The position numbers were made by a program, and so were the translations under genes. The notes beneath the pieces are model-generated. The model worked only from the letters and a program-made list of their open reading frames with translations, was not told the origin of the DNA and made no database searches. 34,350 bases of DNA from an uncultured cyanobacterium (lineage in GTDB: Bacteria > Cyanobacteriota > Cyanobacteriia > Leptolyngbyales > Leptolyngbyaceae): assembly GCA_963766075.1 (NCBI GenBank), contig CAVYAN010000027.1, positions 1 to 34,350 on the forward strand. The letters run 5' to 3'. The stretch's first letter is position 1, and every line of letters starts with the position of its first letter. Positions 1,652-34,113 of this stretch are shown piece by piece.

Positions 1652-1799
1652 ATTTACGGACAGGACTCCCAGAAATACGCAGGCGATCGCCCCTGCTTCA
1701 AAATCACCGCGACCTGATTCCGTAAAATCACTGCAAGCTTTTTAGGGACAGCCCAGTAGCCTGAGGATAAATTCCCCATTTAGCTTGATCAGAAGTGCT

Positions 1800-12717: not shown

Positions 12718-13935
12718 TTAATGGTGGTGGTGCCCGTGCCCATGGTGGTGCCCGTGCCCATGGGAATGCCCATGATCAACAGCATGAGCAGCAGGCTGGT
12801 GGGGTACGCCATCTGCGGGAGAGACCGGTACCTCCGCGAATAATGCATCAATTTGGGGATTCGCCCAATCCGCCGCCATTTGGAGAAACTCTGGATGATC
12901 GTTGACGCACGCCATTTGCACATACGTGACCTCGGGATGCTTTTTCTGTAGCCCATGAATAATGTGGTCCACATCGAGCAAGGTTTCATGGTTCTCGGTG
13001 GCAAACCCGATGGGCATAAACACGAGGGCCGTCGCGCCTAAATCAATCAAGTTCTGGGCAGCCAGGTCCGCATTGGGCTGGGTCCATTCAATCAGGGGGG
13101 TTTGGTGATTCAGCCAGCCAACGGAAATGAGGGGAAAGCGGTTGATCAGCCGCTCCCGCACGCGATCGTAGAGCTTTTGGCTTTCGTCAATTCCGGACGT
13201 AAACCCCTTGGCCTTGTGGGGACAGCCATGGTTCATCAGGATGATCCCCGTCTGCGAAGGCAGGTGGGCCACGGCTAAATCCGTGCGAATTTTGGTTTCT
13301 ACCAAGGTGGCCATTAAATTGATGTAGGCGGGTTCGTCGTAGAACGAGGGAATATAGCGCATCCCTTGGACCCATTGGGTGTTGGGCGAACTGAGGGTGG
13401 AGATCGCCTTATTCACTTGCTCCACCGCAATCCCACTGGTAAAAATCGAATCGACCACCAGCAAGGGATAAATCAAGATCTTGCTAAAGCCCTCGGCCTT
13501 GATCTCAGCGAGGACCTGCTCCGGTAGGCACGGGGCACAAAAGTTAAACGCCTTAAACACCTTGATTCGCTCCCCCCAGCGCGTCTGCAAGTTTGCCTCA
13601 ATGCCTTGGCGCTGCCGCTCAAAAATCGCATTGTGGGGCGAGACAAAGTGATCGTGCTGGTGACTCCATTCATGTAGGTCAAACACAGCCAGCAGCTTAG
13701 CTAAGGGCGGATAAATCCAGGTGGGCACGGGGGCAAACTTGGCTGTCAGCAGATTCAATGCCTGCTCGTTATAGTTGGCAAAGTCTTCGTAACGCTCAAC
13801 TTCGCCATATCCCATCAACAGAACGGCCACCCGTTCGCCAGCAGTTGCAGCCTGGGACATAGCCCCCAAGGATTCAGACTCTGGATTGGCAGACTCTGGA
13901 TTGGCAGACGTTAATCTTTCGGAAGAAGCAACCAT
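12718..13935 (-). CDS. Ferrochelatase-family (class II chelatase) protein with His-rich C-terminal tail
   Basis: AVLLMGYG, ILIYPL, LMNHGCP, EWTQP, FMPIGFATENHETLLD, ACVNDHPEF; ends HGHSHGHGHHHGHGHHHH. ATG at 13935 preferred over the 14025 start. Confidence 0.8.
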   Translation of the reverse strand: MVASSERLTSANPESANPESESLGAMSQAATAGERVAVLLMGYGEVERYEDFANYNEQALNLLTAKFAPVPTWIYPPLAKLLAVFDLHEWSHQHDHFVSPHNAIFERQRQGIEANLQTRWGERIKVFKAFNFCAPCLPEQVLAEIKAEGFSKILIYPLLVVDSIFTSGIAVEQVNKAISTLSSPNTQWVQGMRYIPSFYDEPAYINLMATLVETKIRTDLAVAHLPSQTGIILMNHGCPHKAKGFTSGIDESQKLYDRVRERLINRFPLISVGWLNHQTPLIEWTQPNADLAAQNLIDLGATALVFMPIGFATENHETLLDVDHIIHGLQKKHPEVTYVQMACVNDHPEFLQMAADWANPQIDALFAEVPVSPADGVPHQPAAHAVDHGHSHGHGHHHGHGHHHH

Positions 13936-14026
13936 AGAATAACCACTAGTGATGAGATAAATGGGGTATGGGGCTAGCTTAACATCCCCCCCCCCTGGCA
14001 TTTCCCAGACAATAGGATTTCTCAAT

Positions 14027-16334: not shown

Positions 16335-16595
16335 GGCTGTGTAGTATTGAGAACAAGCCCTTTTGCGATCGCCCCCGTCATTTCTTGGCAAGTTCAGCCC
16401 TATCTGCAATCGGTTTATGCGACCGATGAACGGTGGTGGCAGCTTTACACGTTGACCGATGCGGCGGGCAAGCAGCGGCAAGTGCAGGCGACTACGCCGC
16501 TATTTGATTTTGGATTGATGGTGCAGGCGATTGACCAAAGGCCGCCGCAGGTGTTGCTCGTCGGGCGGCCGAGCGCGGGCAGCGTGATAAACTGA
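16335..16595 (+). pseudogene. Degenerate 5' remnant of a NACHT-type gene (paralogue of 17210-17550)
   Basis: Shares upstream GGCTGTGTAGTATTGA and QPYL...WWQLYTLTDAAGK...FDFGLMVQAI with the 17255 gene; ATG lost, internal deletion, degraded P-loop VLLVGRPSAGS. Confidence 0.8.
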
Positions 16596-16599
16596 ACTT

Positions 16600-16878
16600 A
16601 TGAGATTTGAGTGGGACGAGTCTAAAAATCAAAGTAACCAACGAAAACATGGCTTGGACTTTGCTGAGGCTAAGCGAGTATTTAATCCTTCGTTGTTTGT
16701 GGATGTTGACGATCGCCAGGATTATGGAGAAGAGCGCTATGTCGGGATGGGGTTACTGGATGGACGGATTGTCGTTGTAATTTTCACCCAGCCTGATGAG
16801 GATACAGTTCGAGTCATCTCACTACGAAAAGCAACCTCTTATGAAAGACAACAATACTGTGAATACTTCCAAAACTGA
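16600..16878 (+). CDS. brnT: BrnT-family toxin
   Basis: MRFEWDESKNQSNQRKHGLDF, DDRQDYGEERY, RVISLRKA...ER. Confidence 0.93.
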   Translation: MRFEWDESKNQSNQRKHGLDFAEAKRVFNPSLFVDVDDRQDYGEERYVGMGLLDGRIVVVIFTQPDEDTVRVISLRKATSYERQQYCEYFQN

Positions 16879-17128
16879 TTGGGCGCGGGTTGATGCGATG
16901 GTCGATGAAGAAATTGATACGTCGGATAGTCCAGTGCTAACGGCCCAATTTTTCTCTCGGGCCAAGCCGTGGTCACCGGTTAACGCGAAGTCACAAGTTT
17001 CGGTGACGGTTGATGCCGAGACGTTGGCTTGGTTTGCCGGACAAGGTGAAGCGGCTGACCGACATTTGACTGCGGCGTTGCGAATTTATGCCGAAGCCCA
17101 GAAGTATGTAGAGACACCCTCGAATTGA
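16841..17128 (+). CDS. brnA: BrnA-family antitoxin
   Basis: SKTDWARVDAM.DEEIDTSDSP...FF, VSVTVDAETLAWF; overlaps the 3' end of brnT. Confidence 0.85.
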   Translation: MKDNNTVNTSKTDWARVDAMVDEEIDTSDSPVLTAQFFSRAKPWSPVNAKSQVSVTVDAETLAWFAGQGEAADRHLTAALRIYAEAQKYVETPSN

Positions 17129-17254
17129 GCCGGGTGATTATGCGCAAGCGGTTAGGGGCGATCGCGTCGATCTTCAGAAATCATCAACCGAAACTGGCGA
17201 TCGCCGTTTGGCTGTGTAGTATTGAAGACAACCCCCTTTGCGATCGCCCCCGCA

Positions 17255-17822
17255 ATGTCTGAGCCATTTCAGCCCTACCTAGAGTCGATTTGCGTCACCT
17301 ATGCCCAGTGGTGGCAACTCTACACGTTGACCGATGCGGCGGGGAAGGCGCAGCAGGCGAAACAAACCGCACCAACCTTTGATTTTGGGTTGATGGTGCA
17401 GGCGATCGCGCCACAAAAGCCTGGGATGGAAAGGGGCGATTCCAGCGATCGCGAAGAAAAAATTGAGCGTTTCGGCGTTCTAGAAGGTCTACGCAAGTAT
17501 GCCGATCTCCATGTGTTGTTGATTGGGCGACCGGGTTCGGGAAAATCGACGGCGTTGGCGCGGTTGATGTTAGAAGAGGCGACGCTTCAGACCTCGGAGG
17601 TTTTGGAAACCTCCGAGGTCTCGGACTCCCGCAGCACTCCCCGTATTCCCCTGCTGGTGGAGTTACGCTATTGGCAAGGTTCGATCGCCCAACTCATCCT
17701 CAATGCGTTGGCGCGGCATGGACTACCGCTAAAGACTGAGCAACTGGAGTCGGTGTTTTCGCGATCGCTCTTTCTGTTCGATGGGGTGAATGAACTGCCG
17801 TCGGAGGAGGAGCGATCGCAAA
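17255..17822 (+). pseudogene. 5' half of a NACHT (STAND NTPase) gene, truncated just after Walker B
   Basis: Walker A LIGRPGSGKST, IPLLVELR, Walker B LFDGVNELPS. Similarity ends at the HIP1 site 17812-17819, after which the frame runs into the retron 3' end. Confidence 0.85.
17589..17621. repeat. REP-like palindrome inside the NACHT reading frame (encodes TSEVLETSEV)
   Basis: AGACCTCGGAGGTTT-TGG-AAACCTCCGAGGTCT: perfect 15-bp arms, 3-nt loop, 33 bp in total. Confidence 0.85.
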
Positions 17823-17832
17823 AACACAGCTT

Positions 17833-19596
17833 CTACTGCTTTCTCTGTCTATAATGCGCTTCGATTACTTCTACAATTCGATCCAAAAGGGGTACAAATC
17901 CTTCAAAGTTGATTAAAGATGCCATCTCCTCGACAACCTTTTCGGCAAATACTGCTTTGCCGTATGTCGTTTCTGTTGCATTCTTAGCAGAACGATCAAA
18001 AGATTTTCCATTGATTTTTACAGCTAAAGTCGAGGCATCAAAGCAATCCTCAATTTGAGATTCAGTCTGACCTTGCTGAAGTGGGGTAAGAATGAGATAA
18101 AGGTTGCGATGGAGGTGGACATATGGTGGTTCCCCATTCTCTAGATTTGGTTTTGCCCTGTCGCCTTTTTTGACCATATTATTAATAACGTCACGAACCT
18201 CCTTCCCGGCTTTATCATGATCAACTAGCATAATGACTGGTTCCTGCATTCCAGGGGTGGAGAAATGCTCGAATTCGCTTTTAAATAACGGTATGAATTT
18301 CTTTAGATCTCCAGTACCTCCTTTTATGCCAATTATCTCAGCGGTGTTCCTCTTACTGGAATACTTAAGACGCTTAATCGCAAAAGTGACTTTTCCATCG
18401 GCATTCGACGATACAAGTGAAGGATACTGAGAGGCAAGTTGCCTTAGTGCGGTTTCAACATACACAAAATCAGTCAACCCTTCACAAATAAGTACAGGCT
18501 TAGATGCAACATAGAATTCTTTATAGAAAAGAAATCTGCGATATATCGTTTCTTTACTCTTGATTTGCGATTTATCAGAAGTAGAAAGTATTTCTATGTT
18601 ATCTCGATCAATACTATCAACATAGCCAAGCCTTCCATGAAGCTGATTTAGACTTCCCGGCTTCATTTCTAAAGCATAATCACCATTTGAATCTTTTTCA
18701 TAAGTTGGCAGAAGGAAACTTCCTTTTGTAAATAGACGATGCGCCATCGCTCGTATATTATGTCTATATTCACATCGGATATTGACTTTTTTATTAACTA
18801 CAAGGCCAGTAACTTCTTGCCTTGAATAGTAATATTGCATTCGGGTTTTCTTTGGATTAATTTCAAACCCTGAATGTGTTACTAAGCGCAAAAGTTCTGA
18901 ACCCGGAATCCAAGCATGATTGTCATCAGCACTTTGTATCGCAATACTTTTTGGGAAACAACGCTTGTTGGTAGAGAAAGTTAGATCATCCGCGTACCGT
19001 GTATAGCTACACCCTGTGCGAGCAGCCAGTCTTACCAAGTGCGCATCTAGTATATTACCGATCAAATTAGAGATGACGGGAGAGCAGGGACTGCCTTGAG
19101 GAAGACTCTTCTTGAAGCAAGCGATCTGTGCCAATATTGTGGCAACCTTAGGCTCTAGGTGAAATCGTTGATCTTGTATGAAAAAACCACGAACACGACC
19201 AAAATTGATCGAGCCAAAAAAGTTGGTTAAGTCAACATTAAATACATATCTTCGATTTCGATGCTCCTTTGCATTAGTACGGTTGGAAAGCCCACGTTTG
19301 AAGCCATGAGAGATTTGATCTAACGGTTTTGGCTGGTCGCTAGCGACACTCTGGTTAATTTCGTCTAAGCAGTCTTGCAGAAGATCTGCCAATCGCCTTT
19401 GAAGTACTTTTAGACCACTTTGTGGCGCTGCAATAGAACGCACTCCACCTGATCTCTTAGGAATATCAAATTCCTTGTATTTAACAGAATCAGGTTGTTT
19501 ATAGAGAATATACGACAGGCTTTTTGCTTGAAATCCAAAGATGCCTGCGACATCAGCAATAGTTTTAGCATCGCGTAACTTGCTTAGTGCAGACAT
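17833..19596 (-). CDS. Retron Ec67/Eco2-family reverse transcriptase fused to a TOPRIM nuclease (587 aa)
   Basis: RT motifs IPKRSGGVRSI.AP, SHGF, region X NAKEH, DLTNFFGSI, LPQGSPCSP, YADD (18985-18996), region Y VTGL; C-terminal TOPRIM LICEGLTD, VDHD, IEDCF, YGKAVFA. ATG at 19596 directly follows the ncRNA. Confidence 0.95.
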   Translation of the reverse strand: MSALSKLRDAKTIADVAGIFGFQAKSLSYILYKQPDSVKYKEFDIPKRSGGVRSIAAPQSGLKVLQRRLADLLQDCLDEINQSVASDQPKPLDQISHGFKRGLSNRTNAKEHRNRRYVFNVDLTNFFGSINFGRVRGFFIQDQRFHLEPKVATILAQIACFKKSLPQGSPCSPVISNLIGNILDAHLVRLAARTGCSYTRYADDLTFSTNKRCFPKSIAIQSADDNHAWIPGSELLRLVTHSGFEINPKKTRMQYYYSRQEVTGLVVNKKVNIRCEYRHNIRAMAHRLFTKGSFLLPTYEKDSNGDYALEMKPGSLNQLHGRLGYVDSIDRDNIEILSTSDKSQIKSKETIYRRFLFYKEFYVASKPVLICEGLTDFVYVETALRQLASQYPSLVSSNADGKVTFAIKRLKYSSKRNTAEIIGIKGGTGDLKKFIPLFKSEFEHFSTPGMQEPVIMLVDHDKAGKEVRDVINNMVKKGDRAKPNLENGEPPYVHLHRNLYLILTPLQQGQTESQIEDCFDASTLAVKINGKSFDRSAKNATETTYGKAVFAEKVVEEMASLINFEGFVPLLDRIVEVIEAHYRQRKQ

Positions 19597-19621
19597 CGAA
19601 CATTCGTTGCAATAAAGGTGG

Positions 19622-19752
19622 GCTTGCAGGCACTCCTTTGCGAACGCATAGAAGGAAACCCTAAGAGTAACCCTAGAGAGAAGTCTTAGCAGCCTAACGG
19701 CTAGCATTTGTTTCAAGTGTCACGAAGCATGACATAAAATCTGCCTACAAGC
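19622..19752 (-). ncRNA. msr-msd: Retron msr-msd RNA, Ec67-like
   Basis: 11-bp arms GCUUGUAGGCA (19752-19742) and UGCCUGCAAGC (19632-19622) with one G-U pair; G right after the 5' arm (19741); msr hairpin UGUCAU-GCUUC-GUGACA; both ends resemble the Ec67 ncRNA ends as I recall them (GCAUGUAGGCAGAUUU ... AAGGAGUGCCUGCAUGC). Confidence 0.9.
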
Positions 19753-19760
19753 TTAAGTAC

Positions 19761-19766
19761 ATACTA
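19761..19766 (-). promoter_or_regulatory. Candidate -10 element (TAGTAT) for the retron transcript
   Basis: TAnnnT hexamer 8 nt upstream of the 5' arm; no convincing -35 seen. Confidence 0.4.
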
Positions 19767-19798
19767 CAACATATAGACCTAAAGTGCGTCAGCTATTT

Positions 19799-19926
19799 GT
19801 TAGTGTCTTTAATTATTCGTCATCGACTGGAGAATAATCGAACGATTTTTGAAACCCTTATCTGGCGGATGCCCTGAAATCCAGGTTTTTATTCTCTAAT
19901 CAGTGGCGAAAATTAGTGACACTAAC
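19799..19926. mobile_element. 128-bp MITE-like element with about 39-bp imperfect terminal inverted repeats and 7-bp flanking direct repeat
   Basis: Ends GTTAGTGTCTTTAATT... and ...AATTAGTGACACTAAC; GCTATTT at 19792-19798 and 19927-19933. Confidence 0.75.
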
Positions 19927-20009
19927 GCTATTTCATGGTTTGTAGGTGCTTTAGTACTATCTGCGGACGTGATTTCGTCCATGTATGGGCTATTCGTGCT
20001 TTCCACATC

Positions 20010-20824
20010 TTCCCCGACCTCCTAAAACTCTTCCCTACAGAATCCGACGAACAGGCATTCTGAGCTAGCTACAAATACTACAATTATGAAATCTTCCGCT
20101 CCCCACCCGCCCAGCCCCAGCCCAGCCAGCAGGACACCCTTGCTAAAATCGGAACAACCGTAGACCTGATTGACTGACACAAGTCCTGCAAGCCTTGCGA
20201 GGAAGCGGTTTTGGTCTGGGGTGCTTTTTTTCGATTCTGAGGCTCTTGGGATTCGAGTGAAGTCCCTCCTGCGATTGAGTTTAAGCCCTATCACTGGGCT
20301 GTTGCCCAAACCCAGATAAGGCGGGGCATCCAAGAGATGTGTCAGTCAATCAGCCCGTAGACACCATCGCTAAAACCATGTCAGACCAACCCTCCATCGC
20401 CATCACCGGCGGTACCTTCAACGCCCCCGCCCCCAACCAAGGCCATCAACCTACCACCATCATCGGCACCCAACACAACTACTTCGGCACCGACGACACC
20501 CTCCTCCAACAAATCACCGAACTCCAACAATTCATCACCGAACTCGAAACCCAACACCCCCACATCCAAACCCTCCCCGAAGCCGAAGCCGCCCGCGACC
20601 AAGCCATCACCAAAATCCAAGCCACCAACCCCACCCGTTGGCAAACCATCCGCCACCAAATGCGCCTACTCAAACGCCAACTCCTCAACCCCGAGCGCCA
20701 CGCCCAAGCCGCCAAAGCCACCCTCATCGAAGTCACCAAAGCCGCATGGGAAAAAAGCCTGATCGCCAAAGCCACCATCACCTACATCGATAAACTCAGC
20801 GAAACCCCCGACCAAGGAGCTTAA
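20010..20824 (+). pseudogene. 3' remnant of a NACHT/HEAT-type gene, interrupted by a MITE; distal part intact as ORF 20378-20824
   Basis: Removing the MITE and one target copy gives a single frame FPDLLKLFPTESDEQAF*ASYKYYNYEIFRSPPAQPQPSQQDTLAKIGTTVDTIAKTMSDQP...; homologous to 21431-21590 and 23134-23538. The NACHT/HEAT link is from recall of similar cyanobacterial C-termini. Confidence 0.75.
20166..20353. mobile_element. 188-bp MITE with IS4-family (IS50/Tn5-like) 19-bp ends and 9-bp target duplication
   Basis: Left end CTGATTGACTGACACAAGT, right end (reverse complement) CTGATTGACTGACACATCT; flanks ACCGTAGAC (20157-20165) and CCCGTAGAC (20354-20362). Confidence 0.88.
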
Positions 20825-20830
20825 ATCATG
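20763..20830 (+). repeat. 68-bp near-identical direct repeat, copy 1 (copy 2 at 23477-23544)
   Basis: TCGCCAAAGCCAYCATCACCTACATCGAYAAACTCAGCGAAACCCCCGACCAAGGAGCTTAAATCATG; 2 mismatches; includes the stop codon, an AAGGAG RBS and the next ATG. Confidence 0.9.
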
Positions 20831-21055
20831 GAAATTGCACCTCACATTAATGTCGATCCGGCGATCTGCGGCGGTACCCCTGTGATCACGGGTACCCGTA
20901 TCCCAGTATCGATTGTCATTAGCGCCCTCGCCAGCGACATGACCGAAGCTGAAGTCATGGCCGAATACGTCCTTAGTCAACCTCAAATCAAGGCCGCTCT
21001 CGCCTACGCTGCCGATATGGTGAAACACGTCGAAGTCTTCCCAATTGGAGCCTAG
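20828..21055 (+). CDS. DUF433-family protein (putative antitoxin)
   Basis: INVDPAICGGTPVITGTRIPV...EVMAEY.LS..QIKAALAYA. Confidence 0.92.
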   Translation: MEIAPHINVDPAICGGTPVITGTRIPVSIVISALASDMTEAEVMAEYVLSQPQIKAALAYAADMVKHVEVFPIGA

Positions 21056-21058
21056 ACG

Positions 21059-21748
21059 GTGAATTTTCTAGTTGATGAAAATATGCCGCGATCGCTGGCC
21101 GCCAAAATCGCCGCGCTGGGCTTCGCCGTCCAAGATGTCCGAGACATTGGATTGGCAGGTTATCCCGATGAAGCAGTGATGCAAGTTGCCATCGCCACCG
21201 ATGCCATCATCATTACTGGCGATCGCCGCTTTGCTGATCCTCGCAGTTGGCCGGAAGCCTTCACCGCCGCTGTCATCTTCATTACACTGCCAGAAGGCAC
21301 ATCCAGTAGGATCTGGGTTGCTAAAGTCCTTGGACTCATCCAACATCGTCTACCCACTTCGCTCTTGGGTGCCTATACCACAGTAGAAATGAGTCGTTCC
21401 CTTTCGCGGCCCATCCGCCGTCGATCTAACGCGATCGCCTCCCACCTCCTGACCTTACTCCCCACCGATTCCGGTCAAAATGCCCATCGTGCCATCCTCG
21501 CCATCCAAGCCAACTGCAAATACTACAACCACGACATCTTCCGCTCTCCACCCGCCTTACCCCAGCCCAGCCAGTCCCCGACCCCAGGCACCACCATCCA
21601 CGTTGCAGGTGATTACATTGCGGGCGACAAAGTCCAAGGCGATAAAATTGCGGGTAACAAAACCGAATTCCCCAACGCCACCGAAGTCAAAATCTTCGAG
21701 CAAGTCGATCGCTACCACACAACCCCCACCCAAGATCCGCCATCATAG
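21059..21748 (+). CDS. DUF5615 PIN-like toxin (to about 21430) fused in frame to a NACHT/HEAT-type C-terminal remnant (21431-21748)
   Basis: FLVDENMPR, DVRDIGLAGYPDE, IIITGDRRF; after HIP1 at 21431-21438 the frame reads AILAIQANCKYYNHDIFRSPP...FPNATEVKIFEQV. Confidence 0.82.
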   Translation: MNFLVDENMPRSLAAKIAALGFAVQDVRDIGLAGYPDEAVMQVAIATDAIIITGDRRFADPRSWPEAFTAAVIFITLPEGTSSRIWVAKVLGLIQHRLPTSLLGAYTTVEMSRSLSRPIRRRSNAIASHLLTLLPTDSGQNAHRAILAIQANCKYYNHDIFRSPPALPQPSQSPTPGTTIHVAGDYIAGDKVQGDKIAGNKTEFPNATEVKIFEQVDRYHTTPTQDPPS

Positions 21749-21781
21749 AATCACACCCACCCATCCCGTTCAGAGAAAAAG

Positions 21782-22096
21782 ATGCTTGCACCCACTCCCT
21801 ATCCTCATCTCGAAACCCCCACGGGCCAACCCGCCTACCTTAAACGCCTCCCCCGTATCCGCGTCGCCCAGATCGTCATGGACTACCTCACCCACGGGTG
21901 GTCCGTCGATGAAATTTGCCACCAGCACCCCTACCTCCTCCCCGCCGAAGCCCACGCCGCCATGACCTACTACTTCGATCACCCCACCGCCATCGAAGCC
22001 GAAATTCAACAAGAACTGCAACAACTTGAACAAATCCGCGCCACCGCTCCTCCCTCGCGATTCCTTACCCGCATGCACACAGAAGGGAGACTGTAG
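21782..22096 (+). CDS. DUF433-family protein (putative antitoxin)
   Basis: RIRVAQIV, GWSVDEICHQHPYLLPAEAHAAMTYYFDH..IEAEI. Confidence 0.88.
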   Translation: MLAPTPYPHLETPTGQPAYLKRLPRIRVAQIVMDYLTHGWSVDEICHQHPYLLPAEAHAAMTYYFDHPTAIEAEIQQELQQLEQIRATAPPSRFLTRMHTEGRL

Positions 22097-22098
22097 GC

Positions 22099-22446
22099 AT
22101 GGCAATCGCGCTCTATATGGATGTCCACATCCCCCAATCCATCACCATCCAACTGCGTCGCCGCCACATCGACGTGCTGACCGCCCAGGAAGACAACGCA
22201 ATCGCACTGCCTGATCATGAACTGCTAGAACGCAGCACCACTCTCGGACGCGTCCTCTTTACCCAAGACATCCGCTTCCGCGCTCTAGCTGAAACTTGGC
22301 AACGCGAAGGCAAACCCTTTGCTGGACTGATCTTCGGTCATCAACTTGGCGGCACCATCGGGCAATTCGTCAAAGCTCTCGAATTCATTGCCCAAGCCTC
22401 CGACCCCGAAGACTGGCAAAACATGGTGGAATACATCCCATTCTAA
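22099..22446 (+). CDS. DUF5615 PIN-like protein (putative toxin)
   Basis: LYMDVHIP, LRRRHIDVLTAQED, LPDHELL, GRVLFTQD.RF, FAGLIF. Confidence 0.88.
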   Translation: MAIALYMDVHIPQSITIQLRRRHIDVLTAQEDNAIALPDHELLERSTTLGRVLFTQDIRFRALAETWQREGKPFAGLIFGHQLGGTIGQFVKALEFIAQASDPEDWQNMVEYIPF

Positions 22447-22486
22447 AATTCAAGCCCGTTAAACCTATCCCCCAGGACAAAAAATC

Positions 22487-22708
22487 ATGGTCTCAGCCCA
22501 ACTCATCGCCACCCTCGACAAACTCCCCCCCAACCTCCAAGCCGAAATCCTTCACTACGCCGAATACCTCGCCGCCCAATATACCCAAACCCCAAGCCCT
22601 GAAGCATCCCCACCCCAAACCTATCGGCAAGCCGGAACCATGAAAGGCATGTTCACCATGGCCGACGACTTCGACGCTCCCCTAGAAGACCTCAAAGACT
22701 ACATGTAA
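22487..22708 (+). CDS. DUF2281-family antitoxin
   Basis: LDKLPPNLQAEILHYAEYL...RQAGTMKGMFTMADDFDAPLEDLKDYM. Confidence 0.88.
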   Translation: MVSAQLIATLDKLPPNLQAEILHYAEYLAAQYTQTPSPEASPPQTYRQAGTMKGMFTMADDFDAPLEDLKDYM

Positions 22709-22710
22709 CC

Positions 22711-23092
22711 ATGACGCATCTGCTCGACACCCACACCCTGATCTGGTTTCTCGAAAACGACCCTCAACTTCCCACCGTCACCCGCATCCAGATCCAAACC
22801 ACCCCCACTCTCTTCATCAGCATCGTCTCCCTGTGGGAAATCGCTATCAAAGCCAACATCGGCAAACTCAAGCTCTCCTTTCCCTTCAACACAATTGAAC
22901 CTAACCTCATCGCCATAGGTATCACCCAACTTCCTGTCACCTTCAAAGACCTGGAAATCTACCTCTCTGCCCCTCCATCACCGCGACCCATTTGATCGAA
23001 TTCTTATCGCCCAAGCTATGAACCATTCCCTCACCTTCATCAGCCGAGATACCCAAATGGATACCTACCCCATTCAAAGACTTTGGGGCTAA
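22711..23092 (+). pseudogene. vapC: VapC/PIN toxin with a frameshift in a CT run near 22962-22970
   Basis: LLDTHTLIWF, SIVSLWEIAIK; continuation LPLHHRDPFDRILIAQA...ISRD...IQRLWG in a second frame ending at TAA 23092. May be a sequencing error. Confidence 0.85.
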
Positions 23093-23133
23093 TACAAGTC
23101 AAAAACCCCTCAAGTAAACCTAAAGATAATCAA

Positions 23134-23538
23134 ATGACGAATAATTCAAAATATAACTTTCCCAACGCTCAAAAAGTCCAAATCTTCGAGCAAGTAGAAA
23201 CCTATATCGAACACAACCACCTCACTGATCTTGAGATTAAAGCTGCCATTACCGATCTGCAAACCTTGATCAGCACCTTACAAACCCAGCACCCCACCGT
23301 CACTAGCGAAACCCAAGCCCTTGACATCATCGACGCCGAATTCACCGAAATTAAACACAACCCTAGCCACAAACTCGCCACCCTGCGCAAACAAATCCTC
23401 AACCCAGAACGTCATCTCCAAGCCACCAAAGTCACCCTCGGCGAAGTCGCCAAACACTATCTAGAAGAAAGCGTCTTCGCCAAAGCCATCATCACCTACA
23501 TCGACAAACTCAGCGAAACCCCCGACCAAGGAGCTTAA
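23134..23538 (+). CDS. Stand-alone C-terminal module, paralogue of 20378-20824
   Basis: FPNAQKVQIFEQV (compare FPNATEVKIFEQV near 21667), LNPERH.QA.K.TL.EV, ITYIDKLSETPDQGA. Confidence 0.75.
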   Translation: MTNNSKYNFPNAQKVQIFEQVETYIEHNHLTDLEIKAAITDLQTLISTLQTQHPTVTSETQALDIIDAEFTEIKHNPSHKLATLRKQILNPERHLQATKVTLGEVAKHYLEESVFAKAIITYIDKLSETPDQGA

Positions 23539-23541
23539 ATC

Positions 23542-23799
23542 ATGCAAATCACCACTCAGTTTGAAATCCCCGAAAACCTCGCCCCCTATCTCGCAGCCCA
23601 AATCACCACCGGAGCATACGCCACCCTCAACGACTACATCCAGTCCCTCGTTCAAGCCGACCTCACCCACAAAGTCCAACTCAAAACCAAATTGCTCGAA
23701 TCCCTCGAATCCCCCGCCACCCCTATGACCCCAGCCGACTGGGAGCACATCCGCGCCACCGTTCGCCAAAACATCAGTCAAGCCAATCCCAATGCCTAA
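23542..23799 (+). CDS. parD: ParD-family (RHH) antitoxin
   Basis: AQITTGAYATLNDYIQSLV, LLESLES..TPMTPADWEHIR; overlaps the start of a ParE-like frame. Confidence 0.8.
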   Translation: MQITTQFEIPENLAPYLAAQITTGAYATLNDYIQSLVQADLTHKVQLKTKLLESLESPATPMTPADWEHIRATVRQNISQANPNA

Positions 23800-23893
23800 A
23801 CTGATCAAACGTGCCGTCGTCATCCAAGATTTGATCGATATTGCCACCTACATCAGCCAAGACGCGCCAGCAAAATCGCGGGCATCGAACTGA
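23792..23893 (+). pseudogene. parE: 5' fragment of a RelE/ParE toxin
   Basis: MPKLIKRAVVIQDLIDIATYISQDAP then loss of similarity and a stop after 33 codons. Confidence 0.72.
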
Positions 23894-23991
23894 TGGAATT
23901 TCAAAAACTGATCAGCGATCGCGGCATCTGCATCCATTACGACGTTGAAGACTTTGCCCAAGATGTCCAACATCTCCGCGATCGGGGTTAA
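23863..23991 (+). pseudogene. 3' fragment of a UPF0175-family antitoxin
   Basis: ASKIAGIELMEFQKLISDRGICIHYDVEDFAQDVQHLRDRG*; the N-terminal half is missing. Confidence 0.7.
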
Positions 23992-28967: not shown

Positions 28968-31519
28968 ATGCGTGCGATCTTCTCCCCATCCTGGTTGGCC
29001 ATCACCTTGGGACTCTTTGCTGGATGCGTTGGGTGGGCGGGCGGGCCGGACTCTGGGTGTGGAGCAGCGTTTGCCCAGATCATCCCCGACGGCACGTTAC
29101 CGACCACTGTGACCAGTCCGAATAATTTGGATTTTGCGATCGCGGGCGGCAGTCGTAGCGGTAACAATCTGTTTCATAGTTTCAGTCAATTCTCTGTGCC
29201 GACGGGTGGCGCTGCGGTCTTCAACAACGCTACCAATATCCAAAACATCTTCAGTCGCGTTACCGGAGGGAGTATTTCCAACATCGATGGCGCAATTCGC
29301 GCCAATGGCAGTGCCAATTTATTTTTACTCAATCCCAGTGGCATTCTGTTTGGCCCGAATGCCTCGTTGAATCTTGGCGGGTCGTTCATCGGCACTACTG
29401 CCCATAGTATTAAGTTTGCGGATGGGACGGAGTTCAACGCGACTCAGACCACAGGAATACCCTTGTTGACCATGAGTGTCCCCATGGGTTTGCAGATGGG
29501 CCAAAACCCAGGAGCCATTACCGTGCAAGGACCTGGACATCGCTTGATTGGCGAACTTTTTATCCCCCTCGATCGCAGCCAGGATCCGATCGGGCTACAA
29601 GTTGGAGCGGGCAATACCCTGGCGTTCATTGGTGGTGCAGTCAATTTCTCCGGTGGCGTTGCCACGGTGGCAGGGGGCGGGCATGTAGAAGTTGGGAGTG
29701 TCGGTGCGGGGCAAGTCAGGCTCAATCCCACAGCACAGGGGTGGGTCGGGGATTACTCAGCCGTGGGGCAATTCAATGATATTCATCTGGCGCAGCAATC
29801 GTTACTCGATGCCAGTGGTAGCGGCGGTTCGATCCAAATCCGGGGCCGGAATATCAACTTCACAGAAGGTTCCGCTGCCTTAATCCAAAATTTCGGTGCC
29901 CAACCCTTCGAGGGCATTACCATCAAAGCCACTGAAGCCCTGAATCTAACTGGGAATACACGGGATGGCAGATTGGGAAATCTGATCCGAATTGAGAATT
30001 TAGGCATCGGTCAGACAGGCGATATTACCATTGCGGCGGCCCAACTCTCTCTGCAAAACGGGGGAGATATTCGAGCGACTACTTATACATCTGGCTTCGG
30101 TGGCAATGTTGTAGTAAATGTCGCGGGTTTGATTGAAGCCAATGGGTTTGCACCCCTGAATCCAGGCTTCACGTCTGCCATTGCAGCAGGCACCTATGGG
30201 GCGGGCAACGCCAGTAATCTGACGATTGCAACCGGCAACCTCCGGTTGCTCAATGGCGGGAACATTCTTGCGTTTAGTGTTGGTCAGGGGCAGGCAGGCA
30301 TCATCCGGCTCAATACAACTGACTTAATCGAAATTGTTGGCATTAACCCGATAACATTTGGCGGGAGTGCGATAAATTCCACTGACACTCGGTCCTGGCA
30401 ATGCGAATAACATTTTCATCGATACATCTCGACTGGTGATTCGAGAATCTGGCGTATTGGGGGCTAGTGCTCTGGCTACGGGTTCAGCAGGTAACGTAAC
30501 AGTCAACGCGTCCACATCAGTGGATGTGAGCGGTAGAACCGCTGGATTTCTTCTGCCCAGCCAAATCATTTCAACGGCTCAAATCATCGATTCCATTACT
30601 CAAGCTATCTTTGGGCTACCTGCCGTTCCTACTGGGAATGCGGGCTTTCTCACCATTAATACCCCATCATTACGCATCACCGATGGGGCCGCCGTCACCG
30701 TCAAAAATGATGGTCCTGGCAGTGCGGGGAATGTGACGATTAACGCCGACTCGATTGTCGTGGACAACCGGAGCAGCATTACGGCATCCACTGCCTCTGG
30801 GAATGGTGGGGATATTCGCTTAAACGCTCAAGCAGTGCTGTTAATGCGCCACGGTAGTCTGATTTCTGCCACTGCTGCGGGTGCAGGGGATGGGGGTAAC
30901 CTATTGATGAATGCCCCGGTCATAGTGGGCTTAGAAAACAGCGACATTATTGCCAATGCGGTGAAGGGGCGAGGTGGCACCATTAACATCACCACCCAGG
31001 GCATCTTTGGCCTGAACTATCGCGCTCAGCTCACACCCGAAAATGACATTACGGCCAGTTCAGAATTTGGCGTCAACGGCACGGTTAAGATTACGACTCC
31101 GGGCGTTGATCCCAATGCAGGATTGGTGGCATTACCGCTGAATCTAACCGATTCGAGTCAGCACGTTGCCCAAGGCTGTGCGGGGGAACCAGGGCAGCAG
31201 TTTTGTGATCACGGGGCGGGGCGGGGTGCCGCTGAATCCGATGGAGCAGGTGAGGAGCGATCGCCCTTGGACCGACACCCGCGACCTCTCCGCCTTGCGG
31301 GCCCACGGTGCGCCCACAGCTCAAGCCCCAGCATCAGTATCTCCCACCACGGCACCGCTCGTCCAAGCCACGGGTTGGCGACGGAACGCCAATGGCCAGG
31401 TGGAACTCTATGCCGACATTGGGGCAACGGCTGTCCCAATGCCCCCAGGGGTAACTTGTGCTGAGGCGATCCCCGCTGAAACCTCAAGGTTGAATGTGGG
31501 CTTGAACGTGGGGCCTTAA
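28968..31519 (+). CDS. Filamentous haemagglutinin-family protein, copy 1; frameshifts near 30390 and 31185
   Basis: [38 protein letters not shown]-terminal ENSDIIANA, NDITASSEFG, SSFVITGRGG, LVQATGW. Confidence 0.88.
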
Positions 31520-31606
31520 TTCCCCGTCTGGCGTAGGCCACTGCCGAGTTGAGAAAGACCGCCTCCTGGGCACTCTATCAGTACCCTCTCATCAAGGACT
31601 GCGACC

Positions 31607-34113
31607 ATGCGTAAAATTGTCCCCCTAACCTGCTGCGCTGTCACCACTGGATTATCCATTGGGTTAGTGATGTTATCGGGGGGGCTTTCGCTCAAGTCAT
31701 CCCCGATGGGACTTTACCCACGACTGTGACCAGTCCGAATAATCTGAACTTTGCGATCGCGGGCGGCAGTCGTAGCGGCAACAATCTGTTTCATAGTTTC
31801 AGTCAATTCTCAGTGCCCCTAAATGGCTCTGCCGTCTTCAATAACGCCGCCGATATTCAAAATATCTTCAGTCGGGTCACTGGGGGTAGTGTTTCCCACA
31901 TTGATGGTTTGATTCAAGCCAATGGCACGGCCAATCTATTCTTACTTAATCCTAATGGCATTCTGTTTGGCCCCAATGCGGCATTAAATATTGGCGGTTC
32001 GTTTATCGGTACCACTGCTAATAGCATGTCAAATTTGCCGATGGGGTGGAGTTTAGTGCACTAAATGCGAATGGAACGCCGTTGTTGACAATGAGTGTGC
32101 CGATCAGTTTACAAATGGGGAGCAATCCAGCAGAAATTACGATTCAAGGAGCCGGACATCCACTCGCTCTACCCATTCCCGTCTTCTCACCCTTTATCCC
32201 AACTGGATCAACTTCAGGGATCGGCGTTAACCCTGACAAAACTCTGGCGGTGGCGGCAACATCACCTTGGCAGGCGGCACTATCAGTGCACAACAAGGCC
32301 GAATTGAATTAGGCAGTGTGGCTCAGGGCATCGTTAATCTTAGTCAAATCGACCAAGGTTGGGCCCTTAGTTATGGAGATAACTTACAGTACAGAGATAT
32401 TAGTCTATCTCAAAAAGCCTTGGTGGATACCAGTGGAACCAAGAGTGGGGCAATTCAGGTGCAAGCGCGTAATCTCTCGCTCCATGATGGATCGGTAATT
32501 TTGTCCCAAAATCAGGGATCCCAAACGGGTGGCTCGTTGACAGTCAAAACAACAGACTCGATCAACCTCATTGGCACATCTTCTGATGGACAAATGTATA
32601 GCGGGTTAATTCACCGAAAATCTGAATAGTGGATCAGGTGGCAAGATTACTGTTTCGGACCCAACGATTACTTTTACAAAATGGGGGAAGTATTACGGCT
32701 GCAGCATTTGGAACCGGCAATGGCGGTGATATTGAAGTTCATGCTACCGCATCGATGCAATTAGGCGGGTTGCCACTACCGGGTTCCCTAGATAGTCGAA
32801 TTAATGCTTTAACCTTTAATTCAGGAAAAGCTGGAGATGTGCAAATCTTGACAGGACAATTGCAGCTTCGGGATGGTGGGACAATCAATAGCATTACTTT
32901 TAGTCCTGGTTTTGGGGACACTGGCAAGGTCAACATTAACGCTACAGACGTGATTGATTTAGCCGGTGCTGACCCCGTGACCTTTTCTAAATCCGTGATT
33001 TCAGCCGCAACGTTTGGCGAGGGCAATGCGGATAATTTAGTCATTAACACCCGAACGTTAGTCGTGCGGGATGGGGGAAGAGTGACAACCTCCACCTTTG
33101 CGACTGGAATGCGGGTAACCTATTGATAAACGCAACTGAATCCATCGATATCAGGTGAGTGGTAAGTTTCCAGGATTGATTAACCCGAATTTGCTTGATT
33201 CTTCAATGCCAATATTTTAAGTGAAGTGACTCGCAATTTATTTCGCCTTCCGCCTCAGCCTACGGGGAATTCTGGTAACGTCACGGTTAACACCCCCGAC
33301 TTGAGAGTTAAGGATGGCGGTCTGATTTCGGTTAACAATCAAGGATCTGGAAATTCTGGTCTATTACAGAGTGAGTGCAAATAATGTCTTCTTGGATAAT
33401 CAAGGCGCTTTAACAGCATCAACGTTTTTGGGACAAGGTGGAAATATTCTGATTCAGGCAGACACTTTACTATTGCGGCACAATAGTCGACTGACAGCAA
33501 CAGCGCTCGGAGGACAAGGCAATGGGGGTAATGTTATCATCAATTCTCCGATTATTATCGGATTAGAAAACAGTGACATCATTGCCAATGCTATCCAAGG
33601 CCAGGGGGGTAACATCAGCATCACCACCCAAGGACTCTTTGGCCTCAAGTATCGGGATCAACAGACCCTGGACAACGATATTACCGCCAGCTCCCAATTT
33701 GGCCTCAGTGGCACGGTGGAAATTGCTACTCCGGGCATTGATTCGAATACAGGTTTAGTGGCATTACCCGTTGATATCGTCGATCCAGTCAGAAAATTGC
33801 GCAGAGGTGTGCAGCAAACCAGGGCAGCAGTTTTGTGGTGACGGGACGGGGTGGAATGCCGCTGAATCCAATGGAGCAGGTGAGGAGCGATCGCCCCTGG
33901 ACCGACACCCGCGACCTCTCCGCCTTGCGAGCCCACGGTGCGCCCATGGCTCCAGCCCCAGCATCAATGACTCCCACCCCCGCACCACTCATCCAAGCCA
34001 CGGGTTGGCGACGGAATGCCAAGGGCCAGGTGGAACTCTATGCCGAAACCCAGCCCGCCAGTGGCACAGCGATCGCAGGGGTCACCTGTACCGTGAGTCA
34101 TCAATCCCCGTAA
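31607..34113 (+). pseudogene. Filamentous haemagglutinin-family protein, copy 2; many frameshifts
   Basis: Same N- and C-terminal motifs as copy 1, split across ORFs 31726, 32046, 32267, 32629, 33371 and 33835. Confidence 0.82.

Follow-up and report, generated by a model that had tools for sequence, protein, structure and literature searches.

Cyanobacterial NLR-like receptors of one family end in a C-terminal motif that is found again at the N-terminus of a small partner protein encoded downstream, and both proteins therefore likely couple through this motif. From the sequences analyzed here, we lean towards the view that this coupling is probably amyloid-like and that the TA genes and receptor tips at these loci are exchanged by recombination. 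An island in the window (i.e., the whole stretch of 34,350 nucleotides analyzed, to which all positions refer) is a decayed version of a NACHT-HEAT operon that is widespread in cyanobacteria and comprises an NLR-like receptor gene and a small partner gene.

Receptor, cargo and partner in related loci

In the relatives of the island, an NLR gene ending in a motif of approx. 20 residues (rich in N, Q, G, V and I) is followed by variable TA genes and then by a small gene encoding a helical (or TIR) domain, the N-terminus of which carries the same motif as the NLR end. The intact receptors L095, L096 and L028 present a NACHT module followed by HEAT repeats (the NACHT match of L028 being below the Pfam cut-off); PADLOC holds no specific family for the NACHT-HEAT protein. 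BLAST bore out the proposal of the first-pass annotation that the 5' and 3' pieces in the window come from one gene family, as head and tail pieces both match the same full-length proteins, i.e., a complete paralog that this genome carries (G000:C41:83126-85753) and the relatives L021, L023, L025 and L028.

TA-type genes of at least six kinds occupy the slot between NLR and partner in 43 of 52 pairs, such that cargo varies between fixed gene ends, as had also been proposed; they are found directly behind 19 of 27 fused genes as well. The TA pairs represent unrelated folds (RelE, ParE, PIN, HicA and MNT). Fused all-in-one forms account for 29 of 159 hits, among which 26 partial helical-domain hits and three tip remnants were also found. 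Among split NLRs with a complete start, 22 of 36 carry no N-terminal effector; the other 14 are extended at the N-terminus (by a trypsin-like pattern in 5 cases and by other sequence in 9) and may be independent of the partner.

Motif pairing and the partner domain

The motif at the NLR end matched that of the nearest partner in 47 of 52 pairs, with a mean score of 63.0 as compared to 31.4 ± 2.4 (maximum 42.8) after permutation; when the data were thinned to 43 loci, the scores were 61.2 and 31.0, respectively. The automatic comparison left the motif unmatched in 5 of the 52 pairs. There are at least eight motif types, unrelated to each other. Motif composition (N 11%, I 10%, Q 9%, V 9%, G 8%, L 2%) fits the bias of BASS motifs, which have about 25 residues, are rich in Q, N, G, V and I and are poor in L, K and P (bioRxiv 2020.01.06.895854, section 9). 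Type A includes Pro and several charged residues, and type F has its DLRGA start in common with C03 (BASS3-type) sequences. When 11 exact words were compared against part of the BASS supplement, DLRGA was found in C03, GNVEG and QIIE were found in unrelated contexts, and eight had no match; types A to E yielded no exact word in the searched part. Complex prediction for the two motif peptides (3+2 copies, without alignment) gave a score of 0.02, which has no bearing either way.

Both motif copies are under protein-level purifying selection, with dN/dS values of 0.12-0.24 for the receptor side and 0.03-0.15 for the partner side. After removal of anchor codons, receptor-side values were 0.15 and 0.27 as compared to 0.52 and 1.07 for the adjacent linker. 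Within-locus synonymous divergence of the motif copies (0.61-0.67) equals that between loci; synonymous sites are near saturation, and the copies would thus be poor DNA anchors. These data speak against the earlier suggestion that the repeats are kept as DNA anchors, as the motif copies are conserved as protein. Motif types have been swapped on the partner domain, with 28 changes on the partner tree (minimum 7) versus 47.7 in shuffled data, and are still clustered on that tree; as both motifs lie in one DNA block, linkage alone keeps pairs together.

The partner ORF (motif plus helical domain) has 694 homologs, the best of which are uniformly about 131-144 aa long, and a Met closely precedes 87 of 98 stand-alone hits. 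The helical domain shows dN/dS values of 0.09-0.12, and matches to the family profile occur in 61 of 301 genomes belonging to the class. Pfam recognized no family among 30 partner proteins, and the helical domain contains no hydrophobic transmembrane stretch (maximum 19-residue hydropathy 0.32). Structure models of the partner had pLDDT values of 61.0 and 61.8 (under 50 in the motif region); with these models Foldseek found no match at E ≤ 0.001, and the best VIA hits (Z 6.7 and 6.6) were only generic, middling helical-bundle matches, which provided no link to Bell/HeLo-like membrane domains. The Atlas places the partner in unnamed cyanobacterial clusters, with a weak TCAD2 lead (0.90).

Under the amyloid-like reading, the NLR would sense phage or stress via its HEAT repeats and then oligomerize, thereby clustering C-terminal motifs that would template the N-terminal motif of the partner; the templated motif would switch on the helical or TIR domain and cause growth arrest or death. 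TA pairs would represent either addictive cargo in the operon or an extra defense. We put forward more tentatively the wider proposition of an amyloid immune switch of reversed polarity, whose orthogonal channels would number at least eight and in which NLR tag, TA genes and partner tag make up one exchangeable cassette, so that a single recombination would rewire which effector is fired; if this is true, the addictive TA would lock the new receptor-effector wiring in.

In an unlikely alternative, the motif would serve as a homotypic adaptor without amyloid character (EAD-like) and the helical protein, rather than killing, would regulate the NLR or act as its decoy or adaptor, with TA toxins perhaps providing the real output. 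This would suit a helical domain with no catalytic signature, Pfam family or transmembrane helix and the high frequency of TA-type genes inside pairs and behind fused genes, and the capture of a TA unit by NTPase systems has been described for ParA (bioRxiv 2026.10.19.760177). However, TA pairs of unrelated folds are unlikely to offer a common interface, the same motif also heads TIR genes (L023 and L096), and motif length, composition and the many matched types mirror BASS pairs.

The decayed island and cassette exchange

Features of the island are listed in Table 1. Self-BLASTN identified repeats that confirm the previously noticed homology among 5' pieces and among downstream pieces, pairing 16335-16531 with 17210-17406 (77%, 197 bp, E 7e-39), 20678-20835 with 23392-23549 (83%, 158 bp), 20063-20129 with 21508-21574 (84%, 67 bp) and 21668-21708 with 23158-23198 (80%, 41 bp). 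The three downstream pieces, described before as mutually homologous, are so pairwise, through the end of the HEAT region (C1 and C2), the short motif (C2 and C3) or the helical domain (C1 and C3), and no single segment is common to all three. The pairing of receptor and partner motifs did not feature in the first-pass annotation.

Table 1. Positions of island features in the window
Feature	Position	Strand	Remarks
N1, decayed 5' stub of NACHT-HEAT gene	16335..16595	+	
BrnT-BrnA pair	16600..17128	+	
N2, main NACHT-HEAT gene from promoter-like box to codon ~190	17210..17820	+	
Retron type I-C RT-Toprim gene	17833..19596	-	intact, 587 aa
Predicted retron msr-msd ncRNA	19622..19752	-	
MITE-like element	19799..19926	.	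terminal inverted repeats of 9 bp, flanked by a 7-bp direct repeat
C1, 3' end of fused (all-in-one) NLR	20004..20824	+	
MITE within C1	20166..20353	.	15-bp terminal inverted repeats, ~9-bp target duplication
DUF433 + DUF5615 (PIN-like) pair	20828..21427	+	
C2, orphan NLR tip	21428..21748	+	
Second DUF433 + DUF5615 pair	21782..22446	+	
DUF2281 antitoxin-like gene + PIN toxin gene	22487..23092	+	
C3, partner gene	23134..23538	+	intact, 134 aa
ParD-like gene + ParE 5' fragment + UPF0175 3' fragment	23542..23991	+	collapsed array end

N1 retains an extended -10-like box (TGTGTAGTAT), has ATT at the position of the ATG of N2 and terminates in a degenerate Walker A. The BrnT-BrnA pair behind it shows 78% DNA identity to the pair that is flanked in L028 by a 5' stub on one side and an intact NLR on the other. 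N2 has both Walker A and Walker B (NACHT match, E 4e-7) and has lost the HEAT region; its homology to relatives ends where a HIP1 octamer ends (17812-17819). Among relatives, a 5' stub was found beside only 1 of 66 NLR genes (L101 has a further one, outside this count for having too little upstream DNA), and a 5' cassette array as a general feature was therefore rejected. The interval between MFS genes was likewise rejected as a common hotspot, as 0 of 29 other MFS-ortholog loci carried these genes within 1.5-kb flanks, some of which were ended by contig ends.

The main NLR of the window (N2 and C1) is dead because a type I-C retron took the place of its middle, a replacement that would have had one junction at a HIP1 site. 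The low-GC RT-Toprim gene has YADD at 201 and matches PADLOC RT-Toprim_I-C over residues 1-585 (E 1.2e-216); the predicted msr-msd, closed by an 11-bp a1/a2-type stem (z -2.98), is kept in two of three homologous retron loci (L231 and L232). The contexts of the homologous retrons were unrelated in all three other genomes, and the retron was thus rejected as regular cargo of NLR loci (0 of 3 homologs).

C1 runs from the HEAT end through YYNYEI, a linker and an internal Met (20378) to motif and helical domain, and is damaged by a stop, a short deletion and the MITE. The PIN gene of the pair that follows is without its stop at the junction, so that its reading frame continues into C2. C2 starts 3 bp ahead of a HIP1 octamer and is made up of a HEAT end, YYNHDI, a linker, the receptor-side motif (type A, ~21665-21718) and a stop. 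The second DUF433 + DUF5615 pair is missing in related contigs that join 21749 to 22481, and the PIN toxin gene behind DUF2281 is frameshifted near 22962. C3, previously taken for a remnant, is an intact gene of a conserved stand-alone family that combines N-terminal motif type A with a five-helix domain; the ribosome-binding site of the next gene lies within its 3' end.

Cargo families recognized in the island were BrnT, weak BrnA, DUF433 and DUF5615 (two each), DUF2281, the frameshifted PIN and the UPF0175 fragment; the ParD-like gene and ParE fragment were recognized via similarity to L094. As the modules each have a different best relative, the island is a mosaic. Consistent with the first-pass annotation, no integrase or transposase family was found in the 19 island ORFs and 23 other window ORFs (42 scanned), although the two MITE-like elements, one with a partial copy on contig C101 (19799..19926) and one with three further genome copies (20166..20353; two on C95 and one on C41), do represent transposon footprints. 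HIP1 sites are present at two window junctions. In relatives, CGATCG occurred at 4 of 20 remnant junctions versus 0.8 expected (three at one homologous position) and the full octamer at 1 of 20 versus 0.34 expected, which makes HIP1 weak as a general junction rule. Rfam gave no match at E ≤ 1, and the promoter/terminator scan stayed at chance level. Among the sequencing runs listed for the stretch there was no RNA run and none that covered half of it, no contig crossed the island, and no near-identical strain spanning the exact island site was found.

Two loci with 99.4% identical flanks directly document the integrase-free gain or loss of a cassette, as L183 equals L186 plus 1,034 bp, i.e., one TA-plus-motif cassette, between 242-bp repeats; integrase-free accumulation of cassettes had been proposed before. 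The recombination anchor in this case is helical-domain DNA (the partner-domain repeat); swapping of the NLR tip is visible as mosaicism only. Extra TA pairs in relatives are preceded by partial remnants. Orphan modules of tip, TA and cognate partner are present in 6 of 141 loci (L073, L093, L110, L205, L211 and the window), in line with a suggested reservoir of alternative C-termini. TA genes and motif tips are likely exchanged via homologous recombination across repeated gene ends, and the C2-TA-TA-C3 segment, an orphan module, could give an intact NLR a new tip if the two recombined at the conserved HEAT end. Overall, family unity, cargo variation, integrase-free gain or loss between repeats and orphan alternative tips stand from the first-pass interpretation; the all-remnant view, the 5' array and the MFS hotspot do not.

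It is improbable that every piece is a non-functional remnant of a single gene and persists solely as a DNA anchor at which TA cassettes recombine. Genuine remnants are present (N1, C1, C2 and the partial helical-domain and tip hits above), extra TA pairs follow partial remnants, and repeats did recombine in L183/L186; on the other hand, the anchor observed there is helical-domain DNA rather than the motif, partners have their own Met and uniform length, dN/dS values lie far below 1, and within-locus motif copies approach saturation at synonymous sites. An ordinary decaying defense island, with TA, retron and MITEs acquired through illegitimate, partly HIP1-assisted recombination and motif matches as an old duplication relic in each lineage, is equally improbable, as the visible decay of the window copy, its two HIP1 junctions, the CGATCG excess and the unrelated retron contexts are set against matched pairs without any TA (L202 and L204, genes 46-52 bp apart), the motif selection data and the need for at least eight independent motif-exact duplications, each then protein-conserved on both sides.

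Relation to known systems

In published amyloid pairs, the motif is located at the NLR N-terminus and the partner C-terminus; NLR-associated examples are BASS1-10/Bell (Dyrka et al., bioRxiv 2020.01.06.895854), Bab/Agp BASS11 (bioRxiv 2024.11.07.622273) and fungal NWD2/HET-S. BASS pairs resemble those described here in their linked receptor and small partner genes, common 20-25-residue N/Q/G/V/I-rich motif, many families, helical or TIR partners, all-in-one fusions and occurrence in cyanobacteria. In all matched pairs found here, however, polarity is opposite (motif C-terminal after HEAT in the NLR, N-terminal in the partner), the partner gene is located downstream, in most cases beyond a TA pair, and amyloid behavior is putative. 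By analogy, the pairs look like amyloid signaling with the known polarity reversed. Published amyloid-motif screens covered NLR N-termini and effector C-termini and thus could not detect these pairs; a literature search found no paper with this layout, and BASS Table S2 and Kibby Table S1, outside that search, may list these proteins. If real, the pairing would provide about eight natural, probably orthogonal motif pairs and an uncharacterized effector family, as well as a likely output for many cyanobacterial NACHT-HEAT proteins without N-terminal effector, and would account for TA clusters accumulating behind NLR genes without an integrase.

Integron cassette arrays carry promoterless TA and defense cargo in tandem behind one promoter-like site, as does the window; the latter differs in having no integrase among 42 ORFs, no evident attC-like site and repeats that are protein-coding gene ends. 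Orphan Rhs/CdiA C-terminal modules (PMC3967940), as far as the part of that source considered here describes them, are similar in being downstream tip fragments with linked cargo, able to replace the main tip by recombination, and start-less tips with cargo were indeed found downstream of the main gene; here the tip is a signaling motif and not a toxin, the cargo consists of type II TA and cognate partner, and secretion is not involved. bNACHT anti-phage proteins (Kibby et al., bioRxiv 2022.07.19.500537) share the NACHT module, HEAT repeats and frequent occurrence in cyanobacteria; the part of that paper considered proposes that the rarer C-terminal effectors lie near the N-terminal position and includes no C-terminal coupling motif, separate partner gene or TA cassettes, and the window copy is broken. 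The window retron, with a single RT-Toprim gene and an upstream structured ncRNA, is like other type I-C retrons (Eco2/Ec67-type RT-Toprim) and is peculiar in its position inside an NLR gene, not in kind.

A C-terminal motif shared with downstream partner genes

The more interesting feature of these loci, as compared to the cassette array proposed in the first-pass annotation, is a tag shared between a NACHT-HEAT (NLR-like) receptor and a small stand-alone gene downstream of it (the partner). The mapped loci (179 fetched loci, the window and C41, another contig of the same genome) were picked through matches to N2 (a 5' piece of the NLR gene), C3 (the window's partner gene) or a partner profile, and do not represent a random sample. 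For 52 stand-alone partner genes an NLR end was located in the 3.6 kb upstream, and in 47 of these pairs the C-terminal residues of the NLR matched the N-terminal residues of the partner; the mean match score was 63.0, as compared to 31.4 ± 2.4 (maximum 42.8) for permuted pairs, and 61.2 vs. 31.0 after similar loci were removed to leave 43. At least eight motif types occur across the loci, and the window's orphan NLR tip (C2) and C3 both carry type A. As for the misses, L024 reflects a wrong start choice (its motif does match), L126 and L210 carry the motif in a shifted frame, and the NLRs of L120 and L229 terminate in a different domain. In two loci the NLR and partner genes are 46 - 52 bp apart, without toxin-antitoxin (TA) genes in between. 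Fewer than 120 residues lie ahead of the NACHT module in 22 of the 36 split NLRs (i.e., those with a separate partner gene) with a complete start. Trypsin-like, cysteine-rich or small helical N-terminal domains were observed in some family NLRs (L022, L033, L039, L040, L094, L102, L152, L192), so that both NLR ends vary. In the window, a PIN gene is in frame with C2, and the resulting ORF would place the receptor-side motif on a PIN toxin.

The 159 distinct helical-domain matches comprised 98 short stand-alone frames (a Met lies immediately ahead of 87 of these), 29 long-gene ends, 26 fragments, 3 tip remnants and 3 matches at contig ends. The stand-alone form, motif plus helical domain, is a real family with 694 proteins, the best 120 of which are mostly 131 - 144 aa long; among 301 genomes from the class, 61 gave matches to the partner profile. 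C3 is an intact member, predicted to fold into five helices preceded by a low-confidence N-terminal segment, and matches no Pfam family. TIR genes in L023 and L096 are headed by the same motif as the helical partners.

dN/dS was 0.12 - 0.24 for the receptor-side motif, 0.03 - 0.15 for the partner-side motif and 0.09 - 0.12 for the helical domain; synonymous divergence of the two motif copies within a locus (0.61 - 0.67) equaled the level between loci (sets of 16, 11 and 4 loci; pairwise counts are not independent). Without alignment-anchor codons, receptor-side dN/dS was 0.15 and 0.27, as compared to 0.52 and 1.07 in the ungapped adjoining linker stretch. The motif copies are conserved at the protein level.

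Motif composition agrees with the residue bias published for amyloid signalling motifs of bacteria (bioRxiv 2020.01.06.895854), and the type F start resembles C03 (BASS3-type) entries of the PMC8086366 supplement, in the searched portion of which eight other motif words had no match. In the pairs described in PMC12261475 and bioRxiv 2024.11.07.622273, the motif lies at the N-terminus of the NLR and at the C-terminus of the effector. A C-terminal tag is plausible, since in some NACHT proteins the effector is located at the C-terminus, probably close in space to the N-terminal position (Kibby et al., bioRxiv 2022.07.19.500537). No description of the present layout was found in the literature searched; bioRxiv supplements, outside that search, may bear on it. 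The tags probably couple the two proteins, presumably through binding. Anti-phage cell arrest appears a reasonably probable output, and amyloid behaviour may, by a little better than even chances, be how the coupling works.

Toxin-antitoxin cassettes and their turnover

The slot between NLR and partner was filled by TA-type genes in 43 of 52 pairs, and such genes directly followed 19 of 27 fused genes (NLR and helical domain in one gene), with TA labels taken from Pfam-annotated neighbours. Under motif A alone, the slot contained RelE, ParDE, DUF2281/PIN, UPF0175 or MNT types. Along the partner tree (81 rows, 99 columns), motif type switches 28 times (minimum 7; shuffled 47.7). The clearest example is a pair of contigs from metagenomes, L183 and L186, with 99.4% identity in each flank and an extra 1,034 bp in L183 (a partner 3' end, an antitoxin, RelE and a different motif) bounded by 242-bp repeats that are 99.2% alike; this difference may represent an assembly collapse. 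Overall, recombination-driven cassette turnover is very likely. The cassette proposal holds on the 3' side, with the amendment that functional genes provide, with their ends, the anchors. A 5' array is not a general feature (1 of 66 NLR genes has a stub), even though L028 shows the same stub-BrnTA-NLR order as the window, and the MFS site is not shared either, as none of 29 other MFS-ortholog loci carries such genes (within 1.5 kb).

Six of the 141 distinct loci, the window among them, contain an orphan module made up of an NLR tip with its motif, TA genes and the cognate partner; these modules recall the orphan Rhs tips described in PMC3967940. The best relative differs for each window module. 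In contigs from two runs, derived from related organisms, position 21749 is joined to 22481, skipping one TA pair; as likeness is 85%, these contigs represent other strains or species. HIP1 sites lie at two window junctions, with a weak signal at junctions in relatives; HIP1 is reported to increase recombination in transformation (bioRxiv 2024.09.10.611283).

The probably interrupted NLR gene of the window and its setting

A complete 875-aa paralog on C41 was matched by N2, C2, C1b (a piece of C1, the 3' end of the fused NLR) and C3 queries. Head and tail queries match this paralog and the same full-length relatives, confirming the proposal of one gene family; NACHT and HEAT repeats were present in all three full-length relatives scanned. 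Since both ends find the same genes, N2 and C1 would most simply be two ends of a single gene, with the retron in place of the middle. The likeness of N2 to relatives breaks off where a HIP1 site ends; of 8 aligned relatives, 6 keep this site, either whole or as its core. The retron itself, a type I-C (Ec67-type) element, is intact and has a predicted folded ncRNA. Its homologs, found in 3 of 300 other genomes (L231, L232 and L233; type I-C, 66 - 76% identical, from three other cyanobacterial families), never adjoin NLR pieces (within 1.5 kb), and the retron position inside the NLR gene therefore looks like a one-off. The L233 copy carries a stop and lies behind a nucleotidyltransferase-type TA pair.

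The source genome bin, of which the window is contig C27, is 85% complete and the sole member of its genus; HIP1 octamers occur at 1.37 per kb. Two convergent MFS genes flank the island. Self-comparison of the window recovered the repeats noted initially, profile scans for domain families and defence systems agreed on the defence/TA cargo, and scans of 19 ORFs in the island and of 23 further ORFs elsewhere in the window gave no integrase or transposase family. Two MITE-like elements, different from each other, were found in the island. Most of the window copy is dead; the exceptions are BrnTA, C3, the retron and two DUF433/DUF5615 pairs, one of which contains the read-through PIN. The palindrome in N2 was also seen in other contexts in related contigs (loose ends in X1 and X2).

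Coordinates of features in the window and in related loci
Feature	Position	Remarks
Beta-helix protein	1785-4724	979 aa; weak inverse-autotransporter beta-domain match
Ferrochelatase/CbiX-like protein	12718-14025	histidine-rich C-terminal tail
33-bp palindrome	17589-17621	in-frame insertion in N2; single copy in this assembly
MITE-like element	19799-19926	terminal inverted repeats, target duplication
MITE-like element	20166-20353	terminal inverted repeats of 15 bp, ~9-bp target duplication; interrupts C1; 3 further genome copies
DUF5615 PIN gene with NLR tip	21059-21748	229-aa ORF
TPS secretion-domain (filamentous haemagglutinin-like) gene	28968-32064	apparently split across several ORFs
Second TPS fragment	31726	short
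Motif type A + TIR	L023:5447-6046	stand-alone gene, in same arrays
Motif type A + TIR	L096:6379-7002	stand-alone gene, in same arrays
C41 paralog	G000:C41:83126-85753	intact fused NACHT-HEAT-motif-helical gene; no TA behind; neighbours a two-component pair and a long uncharacterised gene
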